DNA of 64,000 bases from Thermoanaerobaculum sp. (GTDB lineage: Bacteria > Acidobacteriota > Thermoanaerobaculia > Multivoradales > UBA5704): positions 66,441-130,440 of the forward strand of contig JAJKHS010000041.1 in the NCBI GenBank assembly GCA_021154885.1, in the 5' to 3' direction. This document shows positions 13,574-20,274 of the stretch, piece by piece. Numbering within the stretch: position 1 is the first letter of the stretch; the number at the start of each line of letters is the position of its first letter. Position numbers and translations under genes: made by a program. The notes beneath the pieces are model-generated. The model worked only from the letters and a program-made list of their open reading frames with translations, was not told the DNA's origin and searched no databases.

Positions 13574-14394
13574 GCGATCTCTCCGGCCCCATCGACTCGC
13601 ACTGCCACCTCCAGAACCTGCCGCCCGACGAGCGCGAACGCGCCCTCGACGCGGCCCGGGAGCGGGGAGTGCGGGGGTTCCTCGTCCCCGCCACGAAGCT
13701 GAACGAGGCGGAGGAGATCCTCGCCTTCTGCCACCGCCACGCAGACGTCTGGTGCGCCCTGGGCACCCATCCCCACGACGCCTCGTCCTGGCAGGACGGC
13801 GACGTGGATCGTCTCCGCTCCTTCCTTGCCGATCCCAAGGCCGTGGCGGTGGGGGAGTGCGGCCTCGACTTCTACTACGACTACTCTCCACGGGAGGCTC
13901 AGCTCAGGGCGCTACGCGAGCAGTGGGAGCTGGCGATCGATCTCGGCCTTCCTGTGGTGGTCCACAACCGCGACAGCAATGAGGAGATGCTGGACGTCGT
14001 CCGCGAAGACGCCTTCCACGAGCTCCAGGCCGATTTCCACTCCTTCGCGGGCGGGCTCGCCATGGGCCGGGAGCTGATCGAGCGCGGCTTCTATCTGGGC
14101 CTCTCGGGAATGATCACGTTCCCGAAGGCCGACAACGTCCGGGAGGTGATCCCCATCCTGCCGCCGGATCGCTGTCTGGTGGAGACCGACACGCCGTACC
14201 TCGCGCCGGTGCCCTATCGCGGCAAACCCAACTGCCCCGCCTACGTGGTGGAGATCGCGGAGCGGCTGGCCCGGGAGATGGGGGAAAGCTTCAAAGAGGT
14301 CTGCCGGCGGACGGGGGAGAATTTCTACAAGCTGTTTTGGAAGGCCAAGTCGCGCCGCATCCTGGGGCAGAAGGCCCAGACTGCATACCAATGA
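13570..14394 (+). CDS. tatD: TatD-family metal-dependent hydrolase (DNase)
   Basis: DSHCHL begins the protein. The gene is 4-nt coupled to metG, matching the usual metG-tatD synteny. Confidence 0.9.
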   Translation: MSDLSGPIDSHCHLQNLPPDERERALDAARERGVRGFLVPATKLNEAEEILAFCHRHADVWCALGTHPHDASSWQDGDVDRLRSFLADPKAVAVGECGLDFYYDYSPREAQLRALREQWELAIDLGLPVVVHNRDSNEEMLDVVREDAFHELQADFHSFAGGLAMGRELIERGFYLGLSGMITFPKADNVREVIPILPPDRCLVETDTPYLAPVPYRGKPNCPAYVVEIAERLAREMGESFKEVCRRTGENFYKLFWKAKSRRILGQKAQTAYQ

Positions 14395-14445
14395 CGCTCC
14401 CAGGAATATACAAGAGCGGGTCACATTTTATGCTATCCTCGCCCT

Positions 14446-14658
14446 ATGCGACGCACATCTCTGGAGATCGACGAGGAGCGGCTCGCTCGTGCCCAGCGGG
14501 CGCTGGGCACGACGGGGATCAAGGAAACCATCGATCGGGCCCTGGATGAAGTCGTCCGCGCCGATCTGCGTCGCCGTCTTGCCAAGCGCGTCCGATCAGG
14601 CAAGGGGATTGACCGCGGCGACGAGGTGCTCGAGGCCAGCCGCCGGTGGCAGCGTTGA
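14446..14658 (+). CDS. vapB: VapB-type antitoxin
   Basis: Length is 70 aa. It overlaps the downstream PIN gene by 13 nt. Confidence 0.55.
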   Translation: MRRTSLEIDEERLARAQRALGTTGIKETIDRALDEVVRADLRRRLAKRVRSGKGIDRGDEVLEASRRWQR

Positions 14659-15071
14659 CTCTCTACCTCGCCGACACCAGCGCCTGGCACCGCGCAAAGC
14701 ATCCCGCGATTGCGGCGGCTTGGGAGCAACGGCTGGCGAGCGATATTCTTGCCACTTGCACGCAGGTCCGCCTGGAGATCCTGTACTCCGCCCGCAGCGC
14801 CGCCGACTACGAGCAGCTCAGCGCCGAGCTCCTCGCTCTCCATCAGCTTCCGTGCGGCGCGGATCAGTTCGAGCGAGCCCTCGAGGTTCAGCACAGGCTG
14901 GCCAGGCGAGGCGGGCTCCACCATCGCAGCGTCAAAATCCCTGATCTCCTCATCGCTGCCACCGCCGAGGTGGCGGGGGCGGTCCTCTGGCATTACGACG
15001 AGGACTACGATCGGATTGCCCAAATCACTGGGCAGCACGTGGAGTGGATTGCCCCTCGCGGATCTCTCTAA
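14646..15071 (+). CDS. vapC: PIN-domain toxin VapC (GTG start)
   Basis: The sequence begins LYLADTSAW. A later conserved acidic residue lies in the ...LWHYDEDYDRIA region. Confidence 0.75.
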   Translation: MAALTLYLADTSAWHRAKHPAIAAAWEQRLASDILATCTQVRLEILYSARSAADYEQLSAELLALHQLPCGADQFERALEVQHRLARRGGLHHRSVKIPDLLIAATAEVAGAVLWHYDEDYDRIAQITGQHVEWIAPRGSL

Positions 15072-15193
15072 GCATCCTCCGCTCTCAAGAATTTCTTCCG
15101 CCTGTTCCGCAAGGCGAGATCCCCAGTGGGATGAGGGGAAAAGCAGCGCTGGAGCGTTCTCCTTCCGTCGTGCTCAAAGAAAGGAGACAGCCG

Positions 15194-15409
15194 ATGAACA
15201 AAGCCCTCCGCCTCGCCCTCCTGCTCTCCCTGACCGCCCTCGCTTCGTGGACCTCTACCCCTAAGGCCGCTTACGCCCTGCCGACTTGCAACAACCTTCA
15301 AGGCTTCCACTGTTTCCCGCCCAGATCCATTCAGTGCAATTGGATCGGTGGGGGCGGGGCCGGATTCTGTACCTGCGATTCCGAAACTTCCACATGGGAT
15401 TGCTTCTGA
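15194..15409 (+). CDS. Small secreted cysteine-rich peptide (72-aa precursor, roughly 44-aa mature, 6 Cys)
   Basis: An AAGGAGA ribosome-binding site lies 7 nt upstream of the ATG. The Sec-type signal is MNKALRLALLLSLTALASWTSTPKAAYA. The mature part is LPTCNNLQGFHCFPPRSIQCNWIGGGGAGFCTCDSETSTWDCF. Confidence 0.5.
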   Translation: MNKALRLALLLSLTALASWTSTPKAAYALPTCNNLQGFHCFPPRSIQCNWIGGGGAGFCTCDSETSTWDCF

Positions 15410-15581
15410 GCCTGCTCCGGAGCTCCCTCCAGGTCCTCACGGTTTTGGGGGGAGCCGTTCACGCCGGATGGTGCCCACCACGTCGTCCTCGGCTTGACTT
15501 AGTCCGCGGCTGAGTCCACTGTTCGCGCATGCATGAGGTCAACGTCCACGAAGCGCCAAGACCCACCTTTCGCGGCTGCTG

Positions 15582-15760
15582 ATGCGCGTGGCACAGGGCG
15601 AAGAGATCGTCATCGCGCGAGCCGGCAAGCCCATCGTCCGCCTCGTCCCGGTCGAGCCGAAACCGCGCCGGATCCTGGGACAGGATGAAGGACTTTTTGA
15701 AGTTCCTGACGACTTCGATGCCCCTCTGCCGACGGACCTGCAAGCCTACTTCGAGACGTG
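15582..15760 (+). pseudogene. Truncated Phd/YefM-type antitoxin remnant (N-terminus lost; in-frame stop at 15534)
   Basis: The remaining sequence is ...SAKTHLSRLLMRVAQGEEIVIARAGKPIVRLVPVEPKPRRILGQDEGLFEVPDDFDAPLP. This matches the conserved Phd/YefM core and the C-terminal FD-APLP motif. Confidence 0.5.
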
Positions 15761-15843
15761 AGAATCCTGCTCCTCGACGCCGGGCACGGGATTGGACTCG
15801 CGAGACGCCAGACTCGCGAGTCAAGTTCTCCGGAACTCGGATG
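15757..15843 (+). pseudogene. N-terminal fragment of a PIN toxin (VRILLLDAGHG...), truncated after about 28 codons
   Basis: A GTG overlaps the Phd stop. A PIN-like start ILLLDAG is followed by a stop. Confidence 0.3.
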
Positions 15844-15912
15844 AGGTCGTCAGGCGGCTCATCGGTCATGTCCGACGGGAGATCTGTCGTGTCCGATCTC
15901 CCATCTACCACG

Positions 15913-16370
15913 TCCGGTGAGTCATGGGGCACGCCCGGCGTCTCGTCGGGCACGCCCGGCGTCTCGTCTGCCCTGTCCGCTGTGAGATCTTCCCTGCCCG
16001 ACCTTCCACCTGCCCTGTCCGGTGAGTCCTCGGGCACGTCCTGCGTCTCGTCGGGCACGCCCGGCGTCTCGCCTGCCCTGTCCGCTGTGAGACCTTCCCT
16101 GCCCGACCTTCCACCTGCCCTGTCCGGTGAGCCCTCGGGCACGTCTTGCGTCTCGTCGGGCACGCCCGGCGTCTCGTCTGCCCTGTCCGCTGTGAGACCT
16201 TCCCTGCCCGACCTTCCACCTGCCACGTCCGGTGAGTCCTCGGGCACGTCCTGCGTCTCGTCGGGCACGCCCGGCGTCTCGTCTGCCCTGTCCGCTGTGA
16301 GACCTTCCCTGCCCGACCTTCCACCTGCCCTGTCCGGTGAGCCATCGGGCACGTCCTGCGTCACGAGCGC
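15913..16370. repeat. Tandem direct repeat, period 105 bp, about 4.3 copies at more than 90% identity
   Basis: The unit tccggtgag(t/c)c(c/a)tcgggcacgtcctgcgtctcgtcgggcacgcccggcgtctcgtctgccctgtccgctgtgagaccttccctgcccgaccttccacctgccctg repeats at 15913, 16018, 16123, 16228 and 16333. The period is a multiple of 3, and both strands are open across it. Confidence 0.85.
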
Positions 16371-16384
16371 AGTATGATGCACGG

Positions 16385-16600
16385 ATGGTGATCGACCCGC
16401 GGAATCTCGAAGTCGTGGACGACGAGATGGCGCAGGTCTTCCGTGCCATGACCGGAGCCCAGCGCCTGAAGATCGCAAGCGACCTCTTCCGGTCCGCCCG
16501 GGGCATGATCGCCAGCCAGCTCACCGCCGAGCACCCGGACTGGGATGAGCGGCGCCTTCAGGAAGAAGTGGCGAGGAGAATCTCCCATGGAGCAGTCTGA
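16385..16600 (+). CDS. Small hypothetical protein (71 aa), upstream partner of a nucleotidyltransferase
   Basis: It overlaps the downstream gene by 14 nt. There is no recognisable domain. Confidence 0.4.
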   Translation: MVIDPRNLEVVDDEMAQVFRAMTGAQRLKIASDLFRSARGMIASQLTAEHPDWDERRLQEEVARRISHGAV

Positions 16601-17147
16601 GCTGCTCCACTTCGTCGTCGACGCTCTTGAGAGGATCGGCCTGCGGTACTTCGTGACCGGGTCGATGGCCACCATCTTCTTCGGCGAGCCCCGCTTCACC
16701 AACGACATCGACGTCGTCGTGGACCTTCCCGCGGACAAGATCGCTCAGCTCTGCGCGGCCTTTCCGTCGCCGGACTTCTATCTGAGCGAGGAGACGGTCC
16801 GCCGGGCGGTTTCGCGGCGGGGGCAGTTCAACGTTATCCACCCGTCCTCCGGCCTCAAGGTGGACATGATGGTTCCAGCCGACTCACCCTTCAACCGGAG
16901 CCGCTTCGCGAGAGCGAAGAAGATCAGGCCGTCGCCTGATTTCGATGCGACCTTCTCCTCGGCCGAGGACGTCATCCTCAAGAAGATGGAGGCCTACCGC
17001 GAGGGCGGCTCCGAGAAACACCTGCGCGACATCGCAGGCGTCCTGAAGATCAGCGGCGCACACATTGACCGCGGCTATCTTGAGGCTTGGGCGGACCGGC
17101 TGGGAATCGCGGAGATCTGGCGGGAGATCCTGAAGCGGGAGGGATAG
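16587..17147 (+). CDS. Nucleotidyltransferase-fold protein (Pol-beta superfamily)
   Basis: The GS...DID signature occurs as GSMATIFFGEPRFTNDIDVVVD. Length is 186 aa. Confidence 0.6.
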   Translation: MEQSELLHFVVDALERIGLRYFVTGSMATIFFGEPRFTNDIDVVVDLPADKIAQLCAAFPSPDFYLSEETVRRAVSRRGQFNVIHPSSGLKVDMMVPADSPFNRSRFARAKKIRPSPDFDATFSSAEDVILKKMEAYREGGSEKHLRDIAGVLKISGAHIDRGYLEAWADRLGIAEIWREILKREG

Positions 17148-17991: not shown

Positions 17992-20274
17992 TCAGCGGCT
18001 GCCGCCCCCGCCCCGCGGTCCCCGATCGCCGCCGCCACCCCGTCCGCCCCGGAATCCGCCGCGGCCTCCGCGGTCGCCGCCCCGTCCGCCGCGATCGCCG
18101 CCACGGCCCCCGCGGTCGCCCTCGCTACGCTCGCCACCGCCGCCGGCCATGGCCATCTCCATGCCCTCGTACTGGGCAGGATCGTAGTCCGGCGCCTCCA
18201 TGATGACCGCCTTGCGCGACAGCCGGATCTTCCCCGTCTCGTCGATGTTGATCACCTTGACGGCCATCTCGTCGCCCTCCTTGACCACGTCCCCGACCTC
18301 GCGGACGCGGTAGGGGGCGAGCTCGCTGATGTGCACCAGGCCGTCCGTGCCCGGCATGATCTCGACGAAGGCGCCATACGCCTCGACCCGCCGCACCGTG
18401 CCGGTGTAGACCTTGCCGATCTCGGCCACCTCGGTCAGACGCTCCACCATCTGGATGGCACGCCTGGCCGCCGGCTCGTCCGGCGAGGCGATGATCACCT
18501 TGCCGTCGTCCTCGATCTCGATGTCGCAGCCCGTCTCCTCGATGATGGAGCGGATCGTCTTGCCACCGGGTCCGATGACGTCGCGGATCTTCTCCTTCGG
18601 GATCTGCAGGGTGTAGAGGCGTGGCGCAAACTTGGACATCTCGCCTCTCGGTGTGGGCAGGGCCCCCTCCATGATGCCGAGGATATGCATGCGGCCGGCC
18701 TTCGCCTGCTCCAGGGCCACCTTCATGATCTCGCGGGTGACGCCGGTGATCTTGATGTCCATCTGCAGCGCGGTGACCCCTTCGCGGGTGCCGGCGACCT
18801 TGAAGTCCATGTCGCCGTAATGGTCTTCCTGACCGGCGATGTCGGAGAGCACCGCGAACTTGTCGTCCTCCTTGATCAGGCCCATGGCGACGCCCGCCAC
18901 CGGCGCCAGCAGCGGCACGCCGGCGTCGAACATGGCGAGCGAGCCGCCGCAGATCGAGGCCATGGACGAGGAGCCGTTCGACTCCAGGATGTCCGAGACG
19001 ACGCGGATGGTGTACGGGAACTCGTCCTCGTGCGGCAGCACCGGCAGGAGGGCCCGCCGGGCCAGCACGCCGTGGCCGATCTCACGCCGGCCGGCGCTGC
19101 GCAGGAACTTCACCTCGCCCACGGAGAAGGGCGGGAAGTTGTAATGCAGCATGAACTTCTGCACGCTCTCGCCCTCGTACTCCTCGATCAACTGGGCATC
19201 CCGCTTGGTGCCCAGCGTGGCCGTGACCAGCGCCTGCGTCTCGCCCCGGGTGAACAGCGTCGAGCCGTGGGTACGGGGCAGCAGCCCGGCCTCGACCTCG
19301 ATCGGCCGGATCTCGTCGAGCCGCCGGCCGTCGAAGCGCGTGCGTTCGTTGAGCACCACCTCGCGGAGGATCTCCTCCTCGAGACGGGAGACGATCTTCT
19401 TGACCTGGCCCTTCCGGGCCGCCTCCGCCTCGGGGATCTGCTCGAGGTAGGGCTTGACCACGGCGCCCACCGCGGATTTGCGCTCGAACTTGCCCTTGGT
19501 GAAGAGGGCCGCCTTGAGAGGCGCGTAGAGGTCGCTCTTGACCTGCTCGTAGAGCGACTCGGGGTAGGCCTCGGGCGCCGTCCACGACGGCTTCTCGCGG
19601 TTGCCCTCGCGGAACAGCTCGTGTTGCGCCTTGATGATCTTCTGGATCTCCTGGTGGCCGCGCCAGATGCACTCCAGCAGCAGCTCCTCGGAGACCTGGT
19701 TGGCTCCGGCCTCCACCATCACCACCGCCTCCTCCGTGCCGACGACCACCAGGTCGAGGTCGGAGACGTCACGCAGGCTGTTGGCGGGGTTCATCACCAC
19801 CTCGCCGTCAATCAGTCCCACGCGCACCGCGCCCACTGGGTGGTAGAAGGGGATGTTGGAAAGCACCAGCGCTACCGAGGCGCCGTTGATGGCCAGGATG
19901 TCGGGGTCGTTCTCGCCGTCGGCCGACAGGCAGAAGGCGATGATCTGGGTATCGGCGATGTAGCCTTCGGGGAACAGCGGCCGTAAGGGGCGGTCGATCT
20001 GGCGGGAGGTGATGATCTCCTTCTCGGTGGGCCGGCCCTCGCGCTTGAAGAAGCCGCCCGGGATGCGCCCCGCGGCGTAGGTGTACTCGCGATAGTCGAC
20101 CGTCAGCGGCAGGAAGTCGCGCTCGACTCCCGGCTTGTACTCCATGCAGGCGGTGGCGAGCACGACCGTGTCGCCGAAGCGGATGGTGCAGGACCCGTTG
20201 GCCTGCTTGGCCAGGTGACCCGATTCGATGATCAGGGTCCCCGACCCGATGGCAATCTCTTTCCGTTGCTTCAT
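17992..20274 (-). CDS. pnp: Polynucleotide phosphorylase with a C-terminal Arg/Gly-rich tail
   Basis: Two RNase PH domains plus KH and S1 domains are present. The tail [28 protein letters not shown] is typical of long-tailed PNPases. Confidence 0.95.

Follow-up and report, generated by a model that had tools for sequence, protein, structure and literature searches.

A small gene at positions 15194-15409 (plus strand) of the window, the 64,000-nucleotide stretch of Thermoanaerobaculum sp. DNA analysed as a whole here, codes a 71-amino-acid precursor with a signal peptide and six cysteines in its mature part. The gene is genuine and is vertically inherited in this Thermoanaerobaculaceae (Acidobacteriota) genome. 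Together with its relatives it forms a large family that had not been described before and that has been met only in soil Acidobacteria of an uncultured group. Its product is probably a mini-protein, Sec-exported, disulfide-stabilised and β-rich, whose variable loops bind a target outside the cytoplasm, a reading that is favoured here with moderate confidence.

The open reading frame (ORF) begins with an ATG at 15194 and has 71 codons followed by the stop codon TGA (15407-15409). A ribosome-binding site (RBS), AAGGAGA (15181-15187), lies on the same strand 6 bases 5' of the ATG. The precursor reads MNKALRLALLLSLTALASWTSTPKAAYA followed by LPTCNNLQGFHCFPPRSIQCNWIGGGGAGFCTCDSETSTWDCF. The first part, MNKALRLALLLSLTALASWTSTPKAAYA (28 codons, 15194-15277), is by its sequence features a canonical Sec-type signal: it has a basic n-region (K3, R6), a hydrophobic core of 11 residues with a hydropathy peak of 2.4, a proline at -6 and the A-x-A motif at -3/-1, with signal peptidase I (SPI) cleavage predicted after AYA. 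Neither a twin-arginine (Tat) motif nor a lipobox is present in the signal region of the precursor. The mature peptide LPTCNNLQGFHCFPPRSIQCNWIGGGGAGFCTCDSETSTWDCF (15278-15406) has a mass of 4.67 kDa, an isoelectric point (pI) of 4.5 and a net charge of -2, and it contains a GGGG tract. A preliminary description of this DNA had already recognised the gene, its AAGGAGA, the Sec signal ending in AYA and the six cysteines, all of which are present as described. It had put the mature peptide at about 44 residues with nine residues in the second gap between cysteines; the six cysteines and the glycine tract stand, but the peptide has 43 residues and the spacing is C-x7-C-x7-C-x10-C-x-C-x8-C, with a second gap of x8 in most relatives.

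A first search of 5.8 billion proteins gave four further clusters at 55-71% identity, and a profile search raised the membership to 25. A later exhaustive HMMER search of 1.84 billion representatives found 182 clusters at E<=1e-3, of which 29 reach E<=1e-10. Nearly all of these matches are 64-80 amino acids long and align end to end; the homologues are stand-alone small proteins and not fragments of larger ones, which had been named at the outset as a finding that would speak against the gene. One match of 907 amino acids (P0029) was rejected as a repeat-driven false positive. The named members and all three genome matches come from metagenome-assembled genomes (MAGs) of Thermoanaerobaculia or Thermoanaerobaculaceae, and the distant members are metagenome-derived and annotated as 'hypothetical protein'. 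Scans of the window protein and 150 members with Pfam and NCBIfam gave only scattered sub-threshold matches to unrelated cysteine-rich models. Profile searches of the PDB sequences with full-length and mature-only alignments gave 0 matches at E<=10. Literature searches on cysteine-rich secreted peptides of Thermoanaerobaculia or Acidobacteriota turned up nothing relevant, the sole match being an unrelated lanthipeptide cluster.

The reading frame, the start site, the RBS and all six cysteines are retained in homologues down to about 25% identity, well beyond what chance would give, and homologues of 55-72% identity keep the start, the RBS and the frame with no indels other than in-frame ones. 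At the ten loci with DNA, the start codon (ATG or TTG), the RBS and the frame are kept and the indels are in-frame. The family signature, drawn from 162 members preselected for at least six cysteines in the whole sequence, is C1-[DE]-x-[LI]-x-G-x2-C2-[ST]-x-P-G-x3-C3-x-W-x(5-8)-G-x-C4-x-C5-x(4-6)-W-x-C6. Matches with fewer cysteines that this preselection excluded look truncated or frameshifted. The first gap has 7 residues in 158 of the 162 members, while the loops vary in length from 3 to 14 residues (C3-C4) and from 5 to 22 residues (C5-C6). Counted from C1 to the carboxyl terminus of these preselected proteins, the number of cysteines is six in 155, eight in 7 and odd in none, and this strict even count is the pattern expected of cysteines paired in disulfides. 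Among the 25 close members none of the six ever changes, and in a 150-member alignment at least 90% of the sequences have C3 aligned. The mature part has a mean length of 44 amino acids and a mean net charge of -1.6 (positive in 19/162, zero or below in 143/162), and histidine is common at several positions. The predicted cleavage tripeptides of the family are AHA, AYA, AEA and AQA. Tat-like motifs occur in 2/162 members and lipobox-like strings in 6/162. Assignment to the bacterial lipoproteins, which carry a lipobox [LVI][ASTVI][GAS]C with its cysteine at +1 of the mature protein, was rejected: the window sequence up to C1 is A-L-P-T-C, and across the family C1 mostly follows S, L, T, Y or V.

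The loci studied fall into two synteny groups, A (which includes the window) and B. The residues unchanged in ten orthologues are LP, the six cysteines and three glycines. Amino-acid identity between the groups is higher in the signal peptide (0.61) than in the mature part (0.41). The ratio of non-synonymous to synonymous substitution rates (dN/dS, omega) is 0.16-0.80 for the whole gene. For the non-scaffold codons of the mature part, omega is 0.8-1.4 in group-A pairs involving the window gene and 0.35-0.65 in group B, values that rest on about 15-22 synonymous sites (S) per pair. The loops evolve fast on a fixed scaffold, and counts of this size do not prove positive selection.

The AlphaFold2 model computed from a 25-sequence alignment has a mean predicted local distance difference test (pLDDT) score of 83, with 84-93 in 10-residue blocks of the cysteine-rich part, and a model of the mature peptide has a mean of 84.5. 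In both, C1 lies at a predicted short helix, after which come three antiparallel strands that carry C3, C4-x-C5 and C6 in turn. Foldseek searches with the two models found nothing significant in the PDB (best E>1) or among the viral models of BFVD (best E=0.18). The best match to a small module was fibronectin type I (2cg6), with a query TM-score (TMq) of 0.49 and E=3.

The precursor would be exported by the Sec system and cut by SPI after AYA. Three disulfides would then form by oxidation of its acidic 43-residue product, either in the periplasm or extracellularly, as the cysteine parity and the compact model suggest. This would yield a mini-protein of about 4.7 kDa, compact in shape, with a predicted short helix and three-stranded antiparallel sheet; its rigid scaffold may present variable loops to a target beyond the cytoplasm, which it would inhibit, antagonise or serve as a ligand. 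Binding is taken as the most likely mode of action because only the scaffold (six cysteines, two glycines, one or two tryptophans) is conserved and the loops vary in sequence and length among many paralogues, as they typically do in partner-recognising inhibitors, ligands and toxins. A genome probably has at least two paralogues, since members P0002 and P0183 both come from assembly sample ERZ25039599, where their contexts are unrelated. Searches of the window and of all fetched loci by tblastn, and with the family hidden Markov model (HMM) on six-frame ORFs, found no further paralogue beyond the known copy.

Several points weigh against this account. Export and cleavage after AYA are deduced from features of the sequence, and the Foldseek comparisons gave no structural neighbour that backs any particular binding function. 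The six conserved cysteines could bind metal instead of pairing. Omega near 1 in the loops may reflect relaxed constraint rather than diversifying selection. The G+C content at third codon positions (GC3) is 0.71 in the peptide gene versus 0.88-0.95 in the adjoining core genes, a low value that fits fast evolution or weak expression. The gene may also be co-transcribed with vapBC or tatD, genes found upstream of it in different genomes, as no promoter was recognised.

Among the other readings, a Sec-dependent antimicrobial peptide that kills competitors would account for a small, cysteine-rich and presumably exported product whose loops evolve fast (omega about 1) on a fixed scaffold, for the several paralogues and for a GC3 lower than that of core genes. 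This bacteriocin- or defensin-like role, the one put forward in the preliminary description, also has in its favour the major facilitator superfamily (MFS) transporter gene that lies immediately downstream in 3/3 group-B loci. The transporter gene is, however, convergent and absent from group A, and its presence is explicable by the shared ancestry of close genomes. A survey of about 10 distinct genomic contexts revealed no recurring immunity, export or maturation gene, and neither a conserved adjacent small membrane-protein gene nor an ATP-binding cassette (ABC) exporter. The neighbourhood is one of stable housekeeping genes, and tblastn searches of plasmids and phages and a search of viral contigs found no relatives. 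The mature peptides are acidic, in the window as in most of the family, the cysteine-stabilised αβ (CSαβ) motif CxxxC...CxC is absent, and hhalign gave the defensin comparisons probabilities below 2% (below 1% for CSαβ). The label of bacteriocin or defensin is not retained, and an antimicrobial activity is rather improbable. There is still less reason to expect a periplasmic metal-binding or redox mini-protein with the six cysteines as ligands or redox centres. In its favour, no residue but the cysteines and glycine is strictly invariant, the peptide is acidic with frequent histidines, and the class of Acidobacteria to which this organism belongs includes anaerobes, whose capacity to form disulfides in the periplasm may be limited. 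Such a role is difficult to reconcile with a cysteine count that remains strictly even, reaching eight where extras occur, and with a compact β-fold that AlphaFold2 predicts confidently in the absence of a cofactor. CxxC and CxxCH motifs are lacking, as is the Tat signal that periplasmic proteins loaded with a cofactor usually carry, and no metal-resistance or redox genes are consistently nearby.

A bacterial epidermal growth factor (EGF)-like domain, whether a true homologue or a structural mimic acting as a signalling ligand, has a similarly slim chance. Human EGF has the cysteine spacing C-x7-C-x5-C-x10-C-x-C-x8-C, to which the family spacing C-x7-C-x7/8-C-x9/10-C-x-C-x6-8-C comes near. Like the domains of the Pfam clan EGF, the family has six cysteines with C-x-C at positions 4-5 and similar gaps in about 40 residues, and it is predicted to be β-rich; the modelled central β-hairpin (C3, C4-x-C5) and short C-terminal strand would be compatible with the EGF topology. 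Spacing alone does not define a family, and when the general EGF spacing C-x7-C-x4-5-C-x10-13-C-x-C-x8-C is used, gaps 1, 3, 4 and 5 fit and gap 2 has 7-8 residues versus about 5 in human EGF. EGF-type models were the commonest category of weak Pfam matches, found in about 8 of 150 members (EGF_integrin in 4, best E=0.023; EGF_Tenascin in 2, E=0.18; hEGF in 1; EGF_BRNP1-3 in 1), but no EGF profile reached its threshold in any member, and the best EGF_integrin and EGF_Tenascin matches fell far short of their gathering scores. The EGF motif C-x-C-x2-[GP]-[FYW]-x4-8-C is replaced by C-x-C-x4-6-W-x-C, the G-[FY]-x-G after C5 is absent, and the family protein, unlike EGF-like domains, is a single-domain secreted bacterial product. 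The hhalign probability with EGF was 0.7%, no EGF domain stood among the 50 PDB matches listed for each Foldseek search, though the PDB holds many, and no receptor-like gene is conserved nearby. That the ORF is spurious or decaying in a pseudogene-rich accessory patch has a negligible probability. It adjoins a frameshifted antitoxin gene and a tandem-repeat tract, its GC3 is below that of core genes and high-GC DNA yields many chance ORFs. This explanation is refuted by the conservation data, namely the frame, start, RBS and cysteine scaffold kept across about 180 clusters, together with a dN/dS below 1 and the presence of the gene in loci free of toxin-antitoxin (TA) genes and pseudogenes. 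The lack of conservation in relatives that could have discredited the gene is not what was found.

Judged by sequence, the family belongs to none of the known systems with which it was compared, as defining sequence features of each failed. Reference alignments of EGF, CBM1, hevein, squash knottin, β-defensin and CSαβ gave hhalign probabilities of at most 1.7% each. The heat-stable enterotoxins STa (six cysteines) and STb (four cysteines) of E. coli are Sec-dependent products of precursors of about 71-72 amino acids whose cysteines are oxidised in the periplasm. The peptide gene shares with them the precursor length, the N-terminal Sec signal, the predicted oxidation of its cysteines after export and the stand-alone organization without a dedicated maturase. 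In contrast to STa and STb, which are carried by plasmids or transposons of a pathogen, the family has a syntenic place on the chromosome of soil Acidobacteria that are free-living; its cysteine pattern is unrelated, no Pfam enterotoxin model matched and it has no pro-region.

Bacterial CSαβ (cis-)defensins include AdDLP of Anaeromyxobacter and the actifensins. They are, like the family, small ribosomally made bacterial peptides with three disulfides (predicted in the present case), but the family lacks CxxxC in its mature sequence, has C-x-C at cysteines 4-5 instead of 5-6 and is acidic, not cationic; hhalign gave 0.3%. Sec-dependent class II bacteriocins such as enterocin P and lactococcin 972 are cationic, have an immunity gene as partner and are made by Gram-positive bacteria, while Acidobacteria are presumably diderm. 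The peptide resembles these bacteriocins in its small mature product and in having, from its sequence features, a Sec signal with an SPI site rather than a double-glycine leader. It differs in its presumably diderm host and in the lack of both a cationic amphiphilic mature peptide and an adjacent co-oriented immunity gene or other conserved partner gene. A precursor of a ribosomally synthesised and post-translationally modified peptide (RiPP), of the lanthipeptide or the SCIFF/ranthipeptide ('six Cys in forty-five residues') type, was rejected on account of the Sec signal and the absence of a maturase in any context; NCBIfam models of SCIFF and other RiPPs gave no match. Small secreted cysteine-rich proteins are found in fungi and other eukaryotes (one example is treated in PMC7170778). 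The family shares with them its lineage-specific and multi-copy nature, the signal peptide, the even number of cysteines and the variable loops on a fixed scaffold, but the eukaryotic effectors act on hosts and the present family occurs in free-living soil and sediment bacteria.

A bolder view, which is held only tentatively and is on balance unlikely, is that these are lineage-specific, multi-copy, Sec-exported three-disulfide mini-proteins with a fold absent from solved structures and loops under diversifying selection. If true, they would be a bacterial counterpart of the cysteine-rich effector and venom-type peptides of eukaryotes, used for inter-microbial antagonism, inhibition of foreign hydrolases or cell-cell signalling. 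Secreted mini-proteins rich in disulfides are familiar from eukaryotes, where they serve as toxins, defensins, growth factors and effectors, and have rarely been described in bacteria. The present family, with its ~180 clusters, is absent from Pfam, NCBIfam and the PDB and seems to be restricted to one class of Acidobacteria from soil and sediment, few of which have been cultured. Were a binding or antagonistic activity proven, the family would provide a new stable peptide scaffold and a first means of learning how these bacteria, abundant but uncultured, deal with their environment. The window gene should be annotated as belonging to a conserved family; its TA neighbours are uninformative on its function.

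The gene is framed by two conserved noncoding elements. An upstream block of about 60 nucleotides that includes the RBS (15133-15193, plus strand) was defined from the alignment of six syntenic loci. It is kept whether the upstream gene is vapC (window, locus L012) or tatD (L008, L018, L021), and its GAAAGGAGA is retained in the group-B loci too. About 7 nucleotides past the stop codon begins a GC-rich hairpin (15416-15468, plus strand) with the core stem GCUCCCUCCAGG...CUGGGGGGAGC, which is terminator-like without a U tract. Its minimum free energy is -28.5 kcal/mol, with a z-score of only -1.45 against shuffled sequences. The stem is conserved in six group-A loci, where the changes are mostly from G-C to G-U, with one compensatory pair. 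Since the upstream block and the downstream hairpin move with it, the peptide gene forms an independent unit. A scan for promoter and terminator consensus sequences found 0 sites: no sigma-70-like promoter was seen and the hairpin was not called as a terminator. An Rfam scan of 14300-16700 returned only a chance snoRNA match.

The gene order in group A is metG (coding methionyl-tRNA synthetase, MetRS), tatD, the peptide gene, a NIF3-family gene (minus strand) and pnp (minus strand). The peptide gene is the sole gene between tatD and NIF3 in L018 and L021 and directly follows tatD in L008. In the window the interval has also received vapBC upstream, and downstream it holds the remains of a Phd gene, a tract of repeats and a gene pair of the Rv0078B-like/nucleotidyltransferase type; other TA combinations are found at L012, L014 and a JGI contig. 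As it is constant whatever its neighbours, the peptide gene is the fixed element of the interval and the TA genes are variable insertions. It has no constant TA partner and is independent of the flanking TA genes, which are later insertions without a functional link to it. The preliminary description was right that vapBC and a decayed phd flank the gene, but the setting is not the accessory patch that it had assumed. GC3 is 0.70-0.82 in the peptide gene and its orthologues of L018, L021, L010 and L025 and 0.88-0.97 in adjoining housekeeping genes, a trend seen in most orthologues despite the conserved syntenic position.

The upstream pair (14446-15071, plus strand) consists of VapB (14446-14658; Pfam VapB_antitoxin, E=1.6e-6) and a PIN-domain VapC (14646-15071; Pfam PIN, E=1e-11; NCBIfam VapC, E=2.6e-14), and it is missing from the equivalent position in L008, L018 and L021. 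Downstream lies the Phd/YefM antitoxin pseudogene (15529-15761, plus strand), broken by a +2 frameshift due to two extra bases at 15556-15557 that leaves its first nine codons (MHEVNVHEA) in the other frame. By tblastn it is 88.6% identical to residues 7-76 of the intact 76-residue Phd of L014. It has no VapC partner, and the PIN partner of the L014 Phd has no match within the window. The site expected for that VapC is occupied by a 105-bp tandem repeat (15912-16362) with 4.3 copies of 95% identity and 21-bp sub-repeats, which is open in several frames on both strands; gene callers run a long minus-strand ORF (15459-16478) through it. Overlapping genes at 16337-17147 code an Rv0078B-like antitoxin (Pfam, E=8.8e-9) and a 200-residue nucleotidyltransferase with a weak AbiEii match (E=2.5e-4). 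They are probably a further TA pair in an insertion hotspot between tatD and NIF3; L012 and the JGI contig have pairs related to it.

In group B (P0005, P0010, P0014) the peptide gene stands between a divergent gene for a protein of 89-94 amino acids and the convergent MFS transporter gene, which is followed by DinB. The 89-94-residue protein was rejected as an immunity protein, having no hydrophobic segments and being absent from group A. It is a soluble protein with no Pfam match that ends in ...DGWDGRHFT...FYWWPLD, and its gene always divergently adjoins the group-B peptide gene (L010, 9629-9913; L019, 1215-1499; L022, 5625-5894, minus strand). Genes of distant members are found next to those for Band_7 and GNAT acetyltransferase proteins, for ParB and DUF6094 proteins, or for a short-chain dehydrogenase/reductase (SDR) and a 144-residue unknown protein. 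P0188 (L025, 1-12231) is coded between a ParB_N-domain gene and a gene for a 1208-residue DUF6094 protein, with a D12-class methyltransferase nearby; these surroundings resemble those of a mobile element or a defence island, whereas the window copy lies among housekeeping genes.

Two loci from long-read MAGs have metG, tatD, a nickel-insertion gene and pnp in pieces or truncated (L012, 7394-9505; L018, 885-5938 and 7113-8753), which probably reflects assembly indel errors rather than pseudogenes. The polynucleotide phosphorylase (PNPase) coded in the window (17992-20274, minus strand) has a long Arg-Gly-rich C-terminal tail near 17992-18150, an RGG-box-like feature that is unusual for a bacterial PNPase.
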